Below are positions 6,625-49,835 of a stretch of DNA of 64,000 nt, one piece after another. The first letter of the stretch is position 1; each line of letters opens with the position of its first letter. Source of the DNA: a virus; the IMG/VR virus record IMGVR_UViG_3300037478_000520, positions 49,661-113,660 of that record. One strand, written 5' to 3'. The notes beneath the pieces were generated by a model. The model was not told the origin of the DNA. It saw only the letters and a list, made by a program, of their open reading frames with translations, and searched no databases. Position numbers and translations under genes: made by a program.

Positions 6625-6811
6625 AACCCTGCAAAGAGTCTGAAAAGCCAATCGGTCAAACCGCGATGGACTGTCCGCATTGCGGGGCTAACCCCGCATC
6701 CCATCCAGCACCGCGCACAGCATCGCAATCGCGACGATCAGCGTTGCGAGATCGATAGCGTCGATCATTGTTCTGGCCTGTCTGCCACCCCCGGATGTGG
6801 GCGACGTCTGA

Positions 6812-7003
6812 TTCGCGAGAGGTCCGGTGGCGCGAAAACCCCGGGGACCGCTCGCAAACTGGCTAAGAATGCGGGGATATTAGCGAAATCCGATGGTCGT
6901 CAGCCCAAAGCAGCTTCCGTGGTAAACGTCCTGTAGCGCGTAGCGACAGGCACTCGCAAACCGACTTGCAAGCGCGTGGGATCTTTGACAATCTAGCGGA
7001 CCT
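6812..7003 (+). promoter_or_regulatory. CRISPR leader of array 1
   Basis: 6812-6859 matches 43804-43851 (47/48) and 6966-6997 is identical to 43959-43990 (32 nt). The blocks lie at nearly the same distance from the first repeat of each array (192 vs 193 nt). Confidence 0.85.
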
Positions 7004-7627
7004 GTCGCACAAGGCCCTCGGCGCCTTTGAAGCCGAGACTCCTGTGCTCCGGGCGGGGCGACCATTGCGAGGCAGTGTCGCACAAGGCCCTCGGCGCCTT
7101 TGAAGCCGAGACTTGTGCTCGAGGGCGCGCAAGGCATCGGAAAGTCTACCGCGGTCGCACAAGGCCCTCGGCGCCTTTGAAGCCGAGACGTGGGGGCGAG
7201 CGCGGTGGCGCGCGCCGGACTCGGGTAGTCGCACAAGGCCCTCGGCGCCTTTGAAGCCGAGACCGGCTGCAGGACGTGCTGGATTGGCTTGCGAGCCGGG
7301 GGGTCGCACAAGGCCCTCGGCGCCTTTGAAGCCGAGACGTGATCAGCCGCGTAGACCGCCAGCAGCGTCCACGCGGTCGCACAAGGCCCTCGGCGCCTTT
7401 GAAGCCGAGACTCTTGTTCTTGCATCTCTCCAAGAATCGCCCTATGGGGGTCGCACAAGGCCCTCGGCGCCTTTGAAGCCGAGACCCCAATCCCAGGTCG
7501 GAGACGGAACTCGCGCAGTCGTCGCACAAGGCCCTCGGCGCCTTTGAAGCCGAGACCGTAGGTCTGTGAGCACGTGGTGCAAGCCGATGGAGTATCACAA
7601 GGCCCTCGGCGCCTTTGAAGCCGAGAA
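7004..7627 (+). CRISPR. CRISPR array 1 (orphan): 9 repeats, 8 spacers of 35-41 nt
   Basis: 36-nt repeat GTCGCACAAGGCCCTCGGCGCCTTTGAAGCCGAGAC at 7004, 7077, 7154, 7228, 7303, 7376, 7450, 7521. Degenerate terminal repeat GTATCACAAG...GAGAA at 7592. Stem CTCGGC/GCCGAG. Confidence 0.98.
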
Positions 7628-20624: not shown

Positions 20625-21179
20625 TCAATCCTTGCCGGATTCGGCTTCGGCCTTTTCGATCTCTACGTAGAGGCGATCTGCGCCCCAACGCTTGTCGACC
20701 TTGACGCCCGCCTTCTCCGCCATCTCCCGGAGTTCGTCCAACTCGGACTTGTCCTCTGTGGACTCCTCCTCTGGAGGAACTTCGGGCACCAGCTCCGCCT
20801 TTGGCTCCGTTTCCAGCTTCGGCGGCGGTGAAGGCGGCTGCACGGTCGACTTCTCCGCCATCTCCCGGAGTTCGTCCAACTCGGACTTGTCCTCTGTGGA
20901 CTCCTCCTCTGGAGGAACTTCGGGCACCAGCTCCGCCTTTGGCTCCGTTTCCAGCTTCGGCGGCGGTGAAGGCGGCTGCACGGTCGACTTCTCGATGGAC
21001 GGCTTGGGCGGTTCAAGCGGCAAGCCTCCAGGTAGTTGCTTGCGCAACTCGAGAAGCCGCAACTCGTACCCGTGCGCCTGCTCCTGCATGAGGCGCCGGT
21101 GCTCGGACATGGGGATCGACGATGGCGTGGGAGGCGCATTTCCTACCCCCACGCCATGTCGGAATGAAACGCGACCCAT
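20625..21179 (-). CDS. Pro/Glu-rich protein downstream of the capsid gene
   Basis: C-terminal ELREMAEKAGVKVDKRWG..RL motif; contains an internal 46-aa duplication. Confidence 0.65.
   Translation of the reverse strand: MGRVSFRHGVGVGNAPPTPSSIPMSEHRRLMQEQAHGYELRLLELRKQLPGGLPLEPPKPSIEKSTVQPPSPPPKLETEPKAELVPEVPPEEESTEDKSELDELREMAEKSTVQPPSPPPKLETEPKAELVPEVPPEEESTEDKSELDELREMAEKAGVKVDKRWGADRLYVEIEKAEAESGKD
20712..20993. repeat. Perfect 138-bp tandem duplication
   Basis: Unit starting CTTCTCCGCCATCTCC at 20712 and 20850. Confidence 0.9.
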
Positions 21180-29249: not shown

Positions 29250-30465
29250 ATGCGAAAACACCTGAACACAATTTGGCCGCGCGACGTCGCGGTAACCGCG
29301 GGTTGGCTGACGATCGCGACCGGGGGCTTTGCCTCGCTTGTGCTGCCGTTGCTGCAGCTGGGAGGTGCGCTGTGATCTACCGCGAGGACAACACGGAGGG
29401 GTACAGCGCTGCGGCGCTGGCTGAGCTGAACCGCCGCTGGGCCGAGCGCCACGCCGATCTCGACCCCGACGGCCAGGAGGGCAAGGTCGCTGCCGAGCTG
29501 CTACTCGCTGAGTTCGACGCCGAGATCGACCGCGGAGGTGCGCTGTGACCGACACCGAAAACCTGGATCTTTGCACGCACGTACAGTTCAGCCGGGGATC
29601 GCGGTCCTACCCTGGCACCGAAGCTGACTGGCAGGCGTACCTGTCCCACGGGGGGAAGGGGACGCTGACGCGCTTACTGGCAGCTGAGCACGCGGGCGAG
29701 TGTCCAGCGTGTGCGAAGATCGCGGAGTCGGAAGGCGGTGCGCTGTGACGAGCTACACCGTACGCGGAGAGCGTGTCACACTCGACCGCGAAGGCGTCGC
29801 GCGGTCTCTAGCGCACGAATTGCGCGAGGTCGAACGGCTTAGCGCTGGTCGCTACAACCGCGACGAGCTTGCCGACACGCCAGCCGAACGCTGGGCTTAT
29901 CTGCTGTGGTCGAGATCCGAGGTTGCGCGCTTCGCGGCGATCCTACAGTGCATCGACGATAGCGTCGCACAGCTGCCCAAGACACTCTACCCCGGGGCTC
30001 CGCTGTGACGTTCTCGCACTTTTTCGGCGGCATGGCGATGTGCGGTGTTCACGTTGCGATCTACACGATCGAGGGGTCAAACGACGTCATCGCGCGTCTT
30101 GAGACGACCGGACGGAAGCCGATCGCTGCTCCACTGCGACTAAGCCAGGAAGAGCTCAAGGCGATCCCTGGGAACAAGACGAAAAGCCTTGCGCATCTGA
30201 TCAACGCCTGCAATCGGGGGTCGCTGTGATCGCGGACGCCACCACGCCCGCCGATCACTCCGCGTTCGTGCGCGAGCTGACAGCGCTCTGCCGCGCGTAC
30301 GGCGTAACACTCGACCTCCGGGCGGGCGATGGGTGCCCGCCCGAAGTCGCCTCCGCAGTCCGGGACGCGGATGTCGAAATTGTCCTCAGGCCGATCGACC
30401 CTAGCGACCTCGGAGAGTGGACCGAAACGAATTCAGGCGCGGTGTACTGGCCGATTCGCGAGTGA
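29250..30465 (+). CDS. Chain of six small coupled hypothetical genes (29250-29375, 29372-29548, 29545-29748, 29745-30008, 30005-30229, 30226-30465)
   Basis: Each junction is a GTGA stop/start overlap preceded by a GGAGGTGCGCT-like sequence. Confidence 0.7.
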
Positions 30466-30547
30466 ATGGCTGGCGACGGGGCTTGGACTTCGGCCGAGCC
30501 CCAACGCGAGCGACTTTTTTCACTTCGAACAACAAGGGAATACCGCC

Positions 30548-31075
30548 ATGACATCTTACACTGTAATCATAACGTGGGCGCTCGCCGCTAGCGCTGGGAC
30601 CGGACAGACAACCGTCTGCTTTGAGGCCGCATCGCCCGACCCTGCCAAGGCGGCCGTGGAAGCGTGGCGGACCCCCGTCACGCACAGCGGTTCCGCTGTA
30701 ATCGAGTGGATGCCCGAAACCGCTGTAATCGCGTCCGTGCGGGCCGTGGCTGACGGGTGCGGCAAACATGCCCGCCCGTCCATCGCCAAGCCGCCCGAGG
30801 CGACAATCCTCGAGATTCCCGCTGCGACCTATCCCGCCACCGTCCACTACCGCACGCCCGACGGATCGACGGCCCGATGCGACGCGACAATCCTGTGCTC
30901 CGGGCGGGGCGACCATTGCGAGGCCGTGATAGACCCTGGCGCCTGCACATCGCACTGGGGACTTGAGCAATGTCTCGCCAGCACCGTGGCCGTACCCGGC
31001 GACGATTCCGCCGATACCCTGGGGTGCGACCCGGGCGCCCGGCTGCTCGATATCGACTGGACGGACCCGCTGTAA
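30548..31075 (+). CDS. Hypothetical early protein containing the protospacer of array 1 spacer 1
   Basis: ATG 30548 after AAGGGA; 30891-30927 matches spacer 7040-7076 at 36/37. Confidence 0.65.
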   Translation: MTSYTVIITWALAASAGTGQTTVCFEAASPDPAKAAVEAWRTPVTHSGSAVIEWMPETAVIASVRAVADGCGKHARPSIAKPPEATILEIPAATYPATVHYRTPDGSTARCDATILCSGRGDHCEAVIDPGACTSHWGLEQCLASTVAVPGDDSADTLGCDPGARLLDIDWTDPL

Positions 31076-41717: not shown

Positions 41718-41828
41718 AGCGCCGATCAGAGAAGGGGAGATCGCCACAGTCACCAAACGACTGCGCGTCACACCCGAGCAAGCCGAGGAGCTGGAGCGGG
41801 CTCCAGCGCAAAAGAAGGAAACTTGAAA

Positions 41829-43928
41829 ATGCAAACCATCGCCTACAAATACCGGATCCTTCGCGTGCTCTCCGACGAGCGGGCTATCATGGACGAGATC
41901 CGAGCCGGTCACCGGCTCTACAACGATCTAGTCGCCATCGAGCGCAAGCGACGGGCCGCGACCGAGGCGTTCTGGGCTGAGCGTGGTGGGTACCAGGATC
42001 TTCTGGCCGAGCGTGGGAAGGCCATCGAATTCGCCGAGTCGATTCCCAAGGGCGATGATCGGCGCGAGGAGAAGCGCGCGGCATGGCGCGCTGTGAACGA
42101 TCTGCGTAAGCAGATCTGGGAGTGCGAGAAGGACGCCATCAAAGCGTTCCACGCGAGCGATCCCGTGAAGATCCGCAGGATGGAACGCGCCAAGGAACTC
42201 CGTGCTGCTGCGAAGGCGCGCAAGGAAAAGCTAACGGCGAAAAAGATCGCGGACATTCTTGACGAGGAACCAGATTGCCTGACCGAGCGGGATAAGCTGC
42301 GCAAAACGCTTATCCAGAGCTACAAGGATCGCGGCGTCGGGATCAGTGCGAAAACCGTGGCTGGCAAGCTCGCAGAGGCATTCCCTGGTCCGACGGAACA
42401 CGTCGAGCAGGAGGCGAAAGCCGCGGCGTACACAGCCTATCGCGAACGCGGTGTTACGCCCGGTACGCGCGCGGTGGTTGCGGACGCGCATGAGCGCTCG
42501 CTTGAGATGCTCGAGTGGCGAGAGCAACGCTTCAAGCCGTGGTCCGGCCACGGCGCATTCGGAACGCAAATCCAAGGAGGCGCGACGTACGGCGACCTAT
42601 GCAGTGGCAGCCACACGTTTGCTCAACTGGAGTGCCTCGACCGCGGCAACTACACTCCTGGATCTCGCCGGCATGGCAGTCTGCACAGGCTACGCGTGCG
42701 CCTTGGGTCGGACGGTCAGAAGCCCGTCTGGGCGGAATTCGAAGCGAGCCTACTTCGCAGCGGCCCGCGTACGTCCGCGTCGACATCGGATCCGATCCCA
42801 CCCGATGCGCGCGTAATGCAAGTGCGCGTGGTGGTCGACCGAATCGGCGTGCACGACCACTGGTACGTCTGTTTCACGGCTCAGGTTCCGGACGCCGTGC
42901 ACTTGCGGGATGAGCCGCCGACGAAGGGCGGGACGGTGGCCATCGACATTGGGTGGCGCAGTTTGGACGGTGGTTTGCGGGTCGGATACTTCCACGACGG
43001 GCAAGAGCACGGCCCCATCGACCTGCCAACGATCCGCAAGCGACTCAAGCCGCACGGGAAGCGAGGCGCCAAGGCGAAGTGGTTCGAAGTGCGCGACGTG
43101 TTCGATCACGCGAGTCACATCCAAGGGATCCTGTCTCAGGAATTCTACTCCGAGGACAAGGATGCGGCCGTGTACGGCGGCGCCTTGCATGACCTAGCGG
43201 TCTGGATCGACTCGCGCGGGCGCGATGCTCTCCCCGAGTGGCTCTCCGAATCTACCGCCGGGATCCGACAGTGGCGTTCGCAAGCTCGGCTCAACGGACT
43301 AGTTGAACGATGGCTTCACAACCGTTTCGAGGGCGACGGTCAAATCGTCGCTCGCATGGATCAGTGGCGCAAAGACTATAGGCATTTGCATGAATGGTGC
43401 GCGCGGGAGAGAAACCGCGCCCTGAACGCGCGCGACGAGCACTACAGGCAGACCGCGCTACGCCTCGCGCGCGCGTACGAAACGATCGTGATCAACGGCG
43501 CCGACCTTGCAACCACGCGCCGCCGCAAACGGAAAGAGAAGGCCGCCCCCGAGCTGGTCATGGTCGAGGATGCGAAGCGTTCGCAGGCCTTCGACGCCGC
43601 GCCGGGGAAGCTCCGGGAAGAGATCGTAAAGGCGGCAAAGAAGTACGGCCGGACACTGGTCAAATTGCCGTTCGAAACCGAGAGGTGTCACGTTTGCGGG
43701 GAGGTGTGTGAATTTGACCGTGCCCGCTATCTCTCACACAAGTGCGAGCACGAGCCATGCACAGCACAGTGGGACCAGGACGCCAACGCGTGCCTGAATG
43801 CCCTTCGCGAGTGGTCCGGTGGCGCGAAAACCCCGGGGACCGCTCGCAAACGCGACAAGCCCGCGAAGTCACGTGAGAAAACGACGGGGCGCGGCGACGC
43901 AATAGGCGCTGTGAGCGATTCGCTGTAG
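41829..43928 (+). CDS. cas12m: Compact type V CRISPR effector, V-U1/Cas12m-like (TnpB-derived RuvC protein), 699 aa
   Basis: ATG 41829 after AAGGA. Motifs YKY, GHRLYNDLVAIER, RF..W.G.G..G.QIQGG, R.R.GS...P.W, RIG....WYV.FT, RuvC-I VAIDIGWR...GLRV, QWRS.ARL, RuvC-II IVINGADL, AAPG.LR, Zn finger CHVC/CEHEPC, RuvC-III WDQDANA..N. A CRISPR array follows immediately. Confidence 0.85.
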   Translation: MQTIAYKYRILRVLSDERAIMDEIRAGHRLYNDLVAIERKRRAATEAFWAERGGYQDLLAERGKAIEFAESIPKGDDRREEKRAAWRAVNDLRKQIWECEKDAIKAFHASDPVKIRRMERAKELRAAAKARKEKLTAKKIADILDEEPDCLTERDKLRKTLIQSYKDRGVGISAKTVAGKLAEAFPGPTEHVEQEAKAAAYTAYRERGVTPGTRAVVADAHERSLEMLEWREQRFKPWSGHGAFGTQIQGGATYGDLCSGSHTFAQLECLDRGNYTPGSRRHGSLHRLRVRLGSDGQKPVWAEFEASLLRSGPRTSASTSDPIPPDARVMQVRVVVDRIGVHDHWYVCFTAQVPDAVHLRDEPPTKGGTVAIDIGWRSLDGGLRVGYFHDGQEHGPIDLPTIRKRLKPHGKRGAKAKWFEVRDVFDHASHIQGILSQEFYSEDKDAAVYGGALHDLAVWIDSRGRDALPEWLSESTAGIRQWRSQARLNGLVERWLHNRFEGDGQIVARMDQWRKDYRHLHEWCARERNRALNARDEHYRQTALRLARAYETIVINGADLATTRRRKRKEKAAPELVMVEDAKRSQAFDAAPGKLREEIVKAAKKYGRTLVKLPFETERCHVCGEVCEFDRARYLSHKCEHEPCTAQWDQDANACLNALREWSGGAKTPGTARKRDKPAKSREKTTGRGDAIGAVSDSL

Positions 43929-43996
43929 ACCTGGGATCAGGAGCGCTCGCAAAACGGTTTGCAAGCGCGTGGGATCTTTGACAATCTAGCCGAGCT
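43804..43996 (+). promoter_or_regulatory. CRISPR leader of array 2 (5' part overlaps the last ~41 codons of the effector)
   Basis: Same motifs and spacing as the leader of array 1. Confidence 0.85.
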
Positions 43997-44915
43997 GTAT
44001 CAGAAGGCCCTCGGCGCCTTTGAAGCCGAGACCAGATGGCGTTGTGCATCTGGTTGTCGAGCCGCCGGGTATCAGAAGGCCCTCGGCGCCTTTGAAGCCG
44101 AGACCGCGACTGGCTTCATTCGGTTACTTTTTTCGATACTCGTATCAGAAGGCCCTCGGCGCCTTTGAAGCCGAGACACGCCCATGTCCGAGCCGCAGCG
44201 AAGCGCGTCGCCTCGTATCAGAAGGCCCTCGGCGCCTTTGAAGCCGAGACAGGGGGACCGCTCACCCGCAAGAGCGCTTTCAGCCGGCGGTATCACAAGG
44301 CCCTCGGCGCCTTTGAAGCCGAGACCCGCACGTCCGGATCGGCGAGCACCGGCGGTACGTGAGTATCAGAAGGCCCTCGGCGCCTTTGAAGCCGAGACTC
44401 TTGTTCTTGCATCTCTCCAAGAATCGCCCTATGGGGGTCGCACAAGGCCCTCGGCGCCTTTGAAGCCGAGACGCGCGCTGGAATGGTGGCGCTGCGCATC
44501 GGCGCGATCGTCGCACAAGGCCCTCGGCGCCTTTGAAGCCGAGACTAACACCCGGGCGCTGTTACCAAACACCCCAAGGCAGGGGTCGCACAAGGCCCTC
44601 GGCGCCTTTGAAGCCGAGACCGCGCGGCGCCGAAGCCGAAGGCGAAGCCACTCGCGCGCGTGTCGCACAAGGCCCTCGGCGCCTTTGAAGCCGAGACACG
44701 GGAGTCATCTTCGTGACCGGAACGAATACCCAGTCGCACAAGGCCCTCGGCGCCTTTGAAGCCGAGACTGTTTGGCGACGGCGCGAACTCCAAGTCGACC
44801 ATCCTCGGTATCAGAAGGCCCTCGGCGCCTTTGAAGCCGAGACACTGATCACGACCTACGCGAGGTGGTCGCCGACGTGGTATCACAAGGCCCTCGGCGC
44901 CTTTGAAGCTGAGAT
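43997..44915 (+). CRISPR. CRISPR array 2: 13 repeats, 12 spacers of 35-41 nt
   Basis: Repeats GT(AT/CG)CA(G/C)AAGGCCCTCGGCGCCTTTGAAGCCGAGAC at 43997, 44069, 44142, 44215, 44290, 44363, 44437, 44510, 44585, 44662, 44733, 44808. Degenerate terminal repeat at 44880 (...GCTGAGAT). Confidence 0.98.
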
Positions 44916-49222: not shown

Positions 49223-49835
49223 TCACTTCGACCTCCGCAGATCCGCATAGAACGCGTTCAACGTCTCGCCGCAGTCGACGGAATTACTCTTGCAGAACCC
49301 CCCGTGCTTATAGTTCGGGTTGCGGCTTCCACTTTGATTGCGACCTCCGCCCGCGCGACCCTTTTCCTTCATGTCCCTGCCGTTATCTGCCGCCGTACCG
49401 ACGAAGAGGTGCGCCGGATTTACGCATGGCGGGTTGTCGCAGTGATGGCAGACCATCATTCCGTCCGGGACATCGACCCCGGACAGCTTCAGCGCGAGTC
49501 GGTGCGCGAACTCTTTGCGCCTTGTCCCATCCGCCAGGCTGCCAACCCTAAACCTGCCGTACCCGGACCTGTCTCGCTGCGACTTCCAAAGCCAGCAACT
49601 GTCATTCTGTGCCAACATCAACCTTTGGCCAAAATCGATGAGCGATCGGAACGGGCCTAGGCCCGCGCCCCGGGTTGATGCGCTTCTGAAATCCAGTCAC
49701 TGACGACCAGGATCGACCGTTCATGATCGCGGCCACCATGACCCTGCTGAAATCCAGAGCCACATCACCATGCTTGCGTCCGCTGTCGCATACATCGCGA
49801 ACGATGCGAACCACGTCTTGCTCGGCGAGCTTCAT
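49223..49835 (-). pseudogene. HNH homing endonuclease split by a frameshift
   Basis: First frame ends [11 protein letters not shown]. The +1 frame continues DSCWLW...GYG.F...AHR...[22 protein letters not shown]...KGR. Confidence 0.7.

Follow-up and report, generated by a model that had tools for sequence, protein, structure and literature searches.

Cas12m, the effector of type V-M CRISPR systems, has been tested in members whose RuvC sites carry Asp-Glu-Asp (D-E-D), H-D-D and N-D-D residues; all of them bind double-stranded DNA (dsDNA) flanked by a protospacer-adjacent motif (PAM), and none cuts it (Bigelyte et al., PMC11013384). The D-E-D members were represented by four proteins, of which 0/4 cut dsDNA, and processing of the CRISPR RNA (crRNA) precursor by MsCas12m and MmCas12m was independent of RuvC (PMC11013384). 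In Cas12m2 the H-D-D site contains one Mg2+ ion, which binds the non-target strand, and reversion of H-D-D to D-E-D did not bring cleavage back (Omura et al., PMC10442227). The structure of an N-D-D Cas12m led to the same conclusion (2026 preprint, 10.64898/2026.03.26.714355). For clade 4 of the family the triads are given as "DED, DND, NED" (Wu 2022, as cited in PMC10442227). Type V-M systems are enriched on plasmids and are found in some prophages (PMC11656645). The one report to date of a Cas12m carried by a phage is a 2026 preprint, which describes its protein, MvCas12m, as the first (10.64898/2026.09.14.751636). Here we describe a cas12m gene and its CRISPR arrays on a phage genome. The window analyzed is a stretch of 64,000 nucleotides (nt) covering positions 49,661 to 113,660 of the IMG/VR virus record IMGVR_UViG_3300037478_000520, and the gene encodes a 699-residue protein with the RuvC triad D373-N556-D651.

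The reading that we favor, with a probability of about 0.68, is that this protein is a crRNA-guided type V-M effector of a rare long-form lineage, which binds its target without cutting it, and that its loss of the RuvC-II glutamate represents decay within an already non-cutting family. The evidence comes from the fold of the protein, the alignment of its active site, its position in the Cas12m tree and the behavior of its relatives.

The 699-residue protein is a Cas12m

Relatives were gathered by an exhaustive search of 1.84 billion representatives, which returned 2,672, with 388 of these at E <1e-30. Triad counts and alignment columns given below refer to the best 155 relatives aligned, and the phylogeny was computed with FastTree. 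A phmmer search of solved structures matched the Cas12m entry 23vw (23vw_A, E 2.4e-36) and GoCas12m (8pm4_A, E 7e-13), and a search with a profile of the clade described below gave E 5e-67 for 23vw, 1.6e-32 for 8pm4 and 1.5e-30 for 8hhl. The matches in Pfam and NCBIfam were weak and of the TnpB/Cas12f type.

An AlphaFold2 model built on a 144-sequence alignment had a predicted local distance difference test score (pLDDT) of 91.4 and a predicted template modeling score (pTM) of 0.87, and was uncertain only at the loop 311-321 and the C-terminal tail 665-699. Foldseek returned Cas12m structures as all of its first four matches (E 1e-26 to 3e-22). Superposition with VIA-align gave a Z-score of 23.5 to 8pm4 over 534 residues and of 22.6 to 8hhl over 529 residues, compared with 15.7 for TnpB. 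Superposition of a predicted structure on those of Cas12m had been proposed in an original prediction made from the sequence alone. The protein is Cas12m, a type V-M effector.

The RuvC-II position is occupied by asparagine

Catalytically competent Cas12 and TnpB proteins are recognized by an Asp-Glu-Asp triad, and in the phage protein the RuvC-II residue is Asn556. The three RuvC motifs were located by script in the 699-residue translation, and the resulting triad, D373-N556-D651, agrees with the atypical set named in the original prediction; the interval 42945-43781 opens with the codon of D373 and closes with that of D651. Both single-sequence and profile alignments pair N556 with the glutamate of the solved Cas12m structures 23vw ("IVLEE") and 23vu, and with D497 of GoCas12m (8pm4) and D485 of MmCas12m2 (8hhl), so that asparagine stands opposite the Glu or Asp of every one of these proteins. 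In the AlphaFold2 model D373 lies inside the central strand 369-379, N556 ends the β-strand 552-556 and D651 opens the helix 650-663, a predicted placement that is the topology of an RNase H fold. N556 is the true RuvC-II position.

Two nearby acids were considered as replacements and rejected. E551, a candidate for a shifted RuvC-II glutamate, lies in an unconserved column at the strand's opposite end. D559, through which the protein had been suggested to act as a nickase, is the family-wide "FDL" aspartate; it occurs alongside the glutamate in 77% of members, and it is asparagine in the two closest homologues (P0003 and P0004). The suggestion is not borne out by this pattern.

The three active-site columns differ in how strictly they are kept. 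RuvC-III is Asp in 153 of the 155 relatives (98.7%), and D649 is also almost invariant. RuvC-I is Asp in 121 (78%), Asn in 27 (17%) and His in 7 (5%). The RuvC-II column holds Glu in 118 of 155 (76%) and 11 other residues elsewhere, which leaves 24% of the relatives without Glu. Taken as triads, D-E-D accounts for 110 of the 155 representatives and 19 other combinations make up the remainder.

The glutamate was probably lost once, in a lineage with an enlarged REC

The phage protein belongs to a clade of 11 representatives (support 1.0), all of 658-701 residues, in which 0/11 carry Glu at RuvC-II. The triads of the clade are DND in five (the phage protein and four others), DSD in two, and DTD, DRD, DRH and NRH. 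Because the clade is devoid of the glutamate while its sister lineage, P0039, is N-E-D, the RuvC-II glutamate was probably lost once, at the base of the long-form clade, and the site appears to have drifted afterwards. Deeper neighbors are D-E-D. The lineage in which Glu gave way to Asn is not that of the H-D-D and N-D-D proteins, and a second D-N-D lineage, distant and unrelated, is represented by P0054 (572 residues). The proposal that the protein founds a new subfamily can be upheld to the extent that it falls in a distinct long-form clade; the D-N-D triad type, however, was already catalogued, according to the summary in PMC10442227.

Members of the clade are rare. Its representatives were all drawn from metagenome collections, and most of them are the only member of their cluster; the P0011 cluster additionally contains an NCBI sequence (P0159). 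No clade member was found in 185,579 species genomes, in other IMG/VR contigs or in the plasmid collection, and scans of viral and genome contigs for proteins with the clade motifs were negative. A metagenome scan recovered only L009, which is a 4-kb copy of this phage, and L010, which carries one homologue of 46% identity. Among homologues at 46-58% identity, 170 alignment columns are invariant.

The length of the protein bears out the earlier estimate of about 100 extra residues: it has 699, against a median of 602 (10-90%: 562-658) over 144 other representatives. About 60 of the surplus residues lie in the REC helices, about 28 lie between RuvC-I and P469, and 11 form the loop 311-321 that is found only in this protein. 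The REC segment N32-G212 comprises 180 residues here and 175-181 in the clade, compared with a median of 118 (10-90%: 98-125) in relatives. The stretch around residues 100-200, described earlier as rich in Lys and Arg, does contain 22.8% K+R, but it also contains 17.8% D+E; it is a charged helical region and not simply a basic one.

Within the REC extension L144, D145, E147, P148 and C150 are invariant, and D149 is nearly so, in the phage protein and its five closest homologues. This LD-EPDC motif is found in the rest of the clade and in P0039, where it varies at residues 147 and 149, and most other relatives have a gap at this place. The features of the long-form lineage (an REC of about 175-181 residues, LD-(E/D)P-x-C and a length of 658-701 residues) are present in all 11 representatives and in P0039. 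Several D-E-D lineages also have a long REC, of 176-217 residues. Because the N-E-D sister and several D-E-D lineages are long as well, the enlarged REC appears to predate the loss of the glutamate and to be independent of the triad, which speaks against a tie between the longer N-terminal region and the atypical active site.

The R116 column is Arg in 118 of the 155 relatives, and the close homologues keep R116, R117, R120 and R131 without exception. In Cas12m2 the non-target strand is bound by an Arg-rich pocket (PMC10442227), and R116 may form part of the corresponding pocket here, although the alignment of the REC to R111, R112 and R126 of the Mm protein is of low confidence.

Three arrays and a self-matching spacer on a tailed phage

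The IMG/VR record from which the window is drawn is linear, 113,660 bp long and an estimated 82% complete. It carries baseplate J, tape-measure, sheath-like, terminase and integrase-family genes, and the host element is a tailed phage of about 114 kb. Within the structural-gene region a stretch of 138 nt is perfectly duplicated in tandem at 20712-20993 (2.0 copies, 100% match).

This one genome has a single full cas12m gene and three dispersed CRISPR arrays, which share their repeat and leader (Table 1). Repeats within the arrays are perfect. The repeat has a predicted 6-bp stem, CUCGGC/GCCGAG, in which a G-C pair is replaced by A-U in array 3, a compensatory change; a potential pseudoknot, AAGGC/GCCUU, was spotted by eye. 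No anti-repeat was detected within 39-47 kb, Rfam returned nothing at the cas12m locus, and a promoter and terminator scan gave nothing above background. No Pfam match to Cas1 or Cas2 was obtained in the 113.7-kb record, with its estimated completeness of 82%; Cas4 was not searched. Like array 1, array 3 has a remnant of the cas12m 3' end upstream of it, in this case outside the window. Because these remnants precede arrays 1 and 3, the module of gene end, leader and array appears to have been duplicated.

The 46%-identical homologue, encoded on the metagenomic element L010, likewise lies next to an array. That array has a related repeat and is again preceded by the TTGACAATCT motif. The element was considered as a related phage and rejected as such, as the Cas12m-array module is the sole region that it has in common with this genome. 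In its array (L010:11536-12200) the last five repeats have diverged in loop and stem with the pairing kept (CTCGAT...ATCGAG). At about 450 nt from array 3 a single degenerate repeat stands by itself (G000:C1:41521-41556, plus strand); the sequence that follows matches no other part of the genome significantly, even over part of its length. The repeat itself was not found in 185,579 species genomes.

Some spacers recur in, or overlap with those of, another array; arrays 1 and 2, for example, have one in common (7412-7449 = 44399-44436). In array 1 the spacer nearest the leader (7040-7076) equals the self-protospacer at 30891-30927 in 36/37 positions, with the mismatch at position 35 (blastn-short 34/34). 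This self-match is compatible with a non-cutting effector and is no proof of one. It could reflect self-regulation, or the spacer could have been acquired from a close relative, in which case the copy in this phage would have no PAM. The 5' flanks that can be read, GACAA at the self-match and ATCG as rebuilt from the overlapping spacers A2_s5 and A3_s2, are mutually inconsistent, and no PAM was derived from them. Array 2 gave no match in the phage collection and chance-level matches only in the plasmid collection (E 0.07-0.9), and exact scans of viral contigs for two spacers, the self-target sequence and the repeat returned nothing.

The content of some spacers was also noted. Two of them (44399-44436 / 7412-7449 and 44105-44141), read as the reverse complement, resemble the 5' ends of genes, one with an RBS-like (ribosome-binding site) GGAGAG followed by ATG and the other with an A-rich stretch followed by ATGAAG. 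Spacers of this kind would suit promoter-proximal silencing. Spacer 4 of array 3 (G000:C1:42262-42299), translated by eye in the crRNA orientation, reads L-I-C-G-A-S-T-G-G-L-L-A and contains a patatin-like G-x-S-x-G nucleophile motif.

Proposed mechanism and alternatives

If the phage protein behaves as the tested Cas12m proteins do, a single crRNA would guide it to PAM-flanked dsDNA, an R-loop would form and the protein would stay bound, blocking transcription or replication without cutting. D373 and D651, the latter almost invariant, probably still coordinate a single Mg2+, by which the displaced non-target strand would be clamped as it is in the H-D-D Cas12m2. The RuvC-II glutamate normally holds the second catalytic metal, and Asn556 would be unable to support it. 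The enlarged REC probably adds contacts, whether to the heteroduplex, to the non-target strand or, through the LD-EPDC loop, to a partner. The change from Glu to Asn would most likely be decay under relaxed selection and not the inactivating event, since the residue at RuvC-II varies freely, both among members of the clade (N, S, T, R) and family-wide. It also looks more like decay than a new route to a dead enzyme because D-E-D, H-D-D and N-D-D Cas12m proteins are all non-cutting and reversion failed. An N556E variant is expected to be inactive for the same reasons, as D-E-D members do not cut and the H-D-D to D-E-D reversion gave no activity. The earlier description of characterized Cas12m as H-D-D holds for part of the family and was incomplete, D-E-D and N-D-D members having been tested too (PMC11013384).

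Several points weigh against this interpretation. The triads tested in Cas12m are D-E-D, H-D-D and N-D-D, a set that includes neither D-N-D nor any member of this clade, and Omura et al. speculated that clades 3 and 4 of Cas12m might cleave (PMC10442227). The segment "ELVMVED" that follows RuvC-II holds a clade-invariant D581 and a nearly invariant E580. In addition, Asn at RuvC-II is kept in 5/5 members of more than 50% identity; this conservation may leave room for a specific role of the asparagine, whose carbonyl oxygen is a weak ligand of Mg2+. Finally, no match to the spacers was obtained in the searched phage, plasmid, viral-contig and genome collections.

The original prediction took the asparagine as an independent route to nuclease inactivation. 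The substitution is indeed independent, but its standing as a route is doubtful. In favor of the replacement of Glu by Asn having itself inactivated a cutting ancestor, relatives just outside the clade retain the glutamate: P0039 is N-E-D, the deeper neighbors are D-E-D and the loss maps to the base of the clade. Possible cleavage by the D-E-D clades 3 and 4 was also left open by Omura et al. (PMC10442227). Yet the four tested D-E-D proteins cut no dsDNA (PMC11013384), the D-E-D reversion did not restore cleavage (PMC10442227), and the presence of N, S, T and R within the clade and of 11 non-Glu residues across the family fits relaxed constraint, so we regard a truly independent route as unlikely. 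That the protein is still a nuclease or a nickase, with Asn556, D559 or D581 serving as the third ligand next to D373 and D651, we consider improbable. Two of the three acids are kept, D651 and D649 are almost invariant, and both D559 and D581 are present; D559, however, is the "FDL" aspartate discussed above. Mutation of the RuvC-II glutamate inactivates other Cas12 and Cas9 enzymes, and sister subclades have Arg at RuvC-II and His at RuvC-III (DRH, NRH). A cutting enzyme could moreover bear the 36/37 self-match only if the PAM were missing.

The D-x-D pocket might instead be kept for another kind of catalysis, such as metal-dependent processing of the crRNA precursor or cleavage of single-stranded DNA or RNA, and not for strand clamping. 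The array needs processing, for which no other RNase can be recognized at the locus; Cas12c and Cas12j, furthermore, process their crRNA precursors in the RuvC site (PMC10442227). Against this stand the RuvC-independent processing by MsCas12m and MmCas12m (PMC11013384) and the poor catalytic performance of one-metal sites, and such a function appears more improbable still. It is hardly credible that the gene is a decaying, non-functional remnant. Two truncated cas12m 3' pieces do lie beside the other arrays, and the module has been shuffled and degraded in this genome, but the reading frame is intact at 699 residues with a third-position GC content (GC3) of 0.75, the fold is predicted confidently, the repeats are perfect, and the 170 invariant columns at 46-58% identity and the occurrence of the system in the unrelated element L010 point to conservation.

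Beyond binding without cutting, we tentatively entertain the idea that the protein is a phage-adapted programmable repressor and not a defense nuclease, although we hold it to be doubtful. A one-metal clamp and an enlarged REC would together give a very long residence on DNA, with the three arrays serving to silence genes. The genes silenced might include one early gene of the phage itself, through the match at 30891-30927, as well as genes of the host or of competitors.

Organization of the gene and its protein

The coordinates of the features are collected in Table 1. The start at ATG 41829 is preceded by an RBS-like AAGGA about 10 nt upstream and falls on the same start residue in the homologues; an in-frame TTG lies just before it, at 41823, and the ATG is the likelier start. 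The GC3 value of the gene is of the coding type. Pfam Cas12f1-like_TNB covers residues 595-659 with a score below the cut-off, and the four zinc-finger cysteine columns are 94-99% conserved among relatives. The second cysteine pair of the finger (residues 639-644, nt 43743-43760) is C-x4-C (CEHEPC) in the phage protein and C-x2-C in the five closest homologues, a 2-residue insertion.

Table 1. Features of the cas12m gene, its product and the CRISPR arrays (window numbering, except for array 3, which lies on G000:C1; aa, amino acid residues).
Feature	Position	Strand	Description
cas12m gene	41829..43928	+	699 aa plus stop; 2,100-nt open reading frame (ORF); putative start ATG at 41829
REC helical region	41877..42512	+	aa 17-228; nine helices in the AlphaFold2 model
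L-D-x-E-P-D-C motif	42258..42278	+	aa 144-150; lineage-specific, within the REC extension
Loop SGPRTSASTSD	42759..42791	+	aa 311-321; found only in this protein, gap in 5/5 close homologues; pLDDT block mean 55
RuvC-I motif VAIDIGWR	42936..42959	+	begins at aa 370; D373 = nt 42945-42947
RuvC-II motif IVINGADL	43485..43508	+	begins at aa 553; N556 = nt 43494-43496 (AAC); D559 = nt 43503-43505
TNB zinc finger	43686..43760	+	C620, C623, C639, C644
RuvC-III motif WDQDANA	43770..43790	+	begins at aa 648; D651 = nt 43779-43781
C-terminal tail	43821..43925	+	aa 665-699; basic, disordered; pLDDT <50
Leader of array 2	43943..43996	+	common to all three arrays (about 55 nt conserved); contains TTGACAATCT
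Array 2	43997..44915	+	13 repeats of 36 nt, 12 spacers of 35-41 nt; begins 69 nt past the cas12m stop
cas12m 3'-end remnant	6811..6933	+	aa 659-699, 51% identity; upstream of array 1; tblastn, blastn
Array 1	7004..7627	+	9 repeats, same repeat; same leader (6950-7003); without an adjacent full cas gene
Array 3	G000:C1:42008-42560	-	upstream of the window; same repeat and leader
Self-protospacer	30891..30927	+	within ORF 30329-31075; 5' flank GACAA

Significance

The protein is most likely a modest variant within Cas12m, with no new mechanism. If binding without cutting is correct, the non-cutting Cas12m proteins gain a fourth active-site type (D-N-D or, in a wider sense, D-[NSTR]-D) together with a longer REC, and the view would be supported that decay of RuvC followed the switch to binding-based interference and did not cause that switch. 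The phage context, with an effector, three arrays and a self-matching spacer, is more interesting than the triad. Should the repressor idea prove right, the clade would be a natural phage CRISPR interference (CRISPRi) system with a distinct REC module. The value of the protein as a tool is limited because the existing Cas12m tools for CRISPRi and base editing are smaller by about 100 residues, and the earlier notion of a compact scaffold for these purposes does not hold up.

Comparison with known systems

Type V-M effectors with solved structures include MmCas12m2 (8HHL) and GoCas12m (8PM4), both of which are H-D-D. The phage protein has the same fold and the same domain order of WED, REC with a coiled coil, RuvC and zinc-finger TNB. 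All three systems combine a single crRNA built on a 36-nt repeat, with a stem and pseudoknot potential, with the lack of a trans-activating crRNA and of adaptation genes, and all have a degenerate RuvC site that retains the third aspartate. The phage protein is nevertheless only about 20% identical to these two. Its D-N-D site keeps the first aspartate and has Asn instead of Asp at the second position. At 699 residues, as opposed to 596-604, it has an REC longer by about 60 residues and bearing the LD-EPDC loop, and about 28 extra residues in a RuvC insertion. It is also phage-borne, whereas theirs are plasmid- or chromosome-borne.

The closest solved relative by sequence is 23vw ("CRISPR-associated DNA-binding protein Cas12m"), a D-E-D protein that has "GWR", "WRSQ" and "WDQD" in common with the phage protein. 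It has 577 residues and a glutamate at RuvC-II, while the phage protein is about 120 residues longer and has asparagine there. As an active-site type, D-N-D was catalogued bioinformatically for clade 4 of Cas12m (Wu 2022, in the summary given by PMC10442227).

Outside the family, Cas12k, Cas12c and the TldR repressors likewise perform RNA-guided DNA binding with a RuvC domain that is dead or does not cut DNA, in the service of silencing or targeting. They belong to other families, however: Cas12k is a partner of Tn7 transposition proteins and is a much weaker structural match (VIA-align Z of about 10.5-10.8), and the guide RNA of TldR derives from transposons, with no CRISPR arrays.

In its setting the locus resembles that of MvCas12m of myxophage MV-1 (bioRxiv 10.64898/2026.09.14.751636), which is also phage-encoded and adjacent to an array, has no identifiable spacer targets and is not accompanied by cas1, cas2 or cas4. 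The two differ in that MvCas12m has 610 residues, an intact D-E-D triad (D305/E463/D555) and one array, whereas the protein described here has 699 residues, a D-N-D triad, three dispersed arrays and a self-matching spacer.

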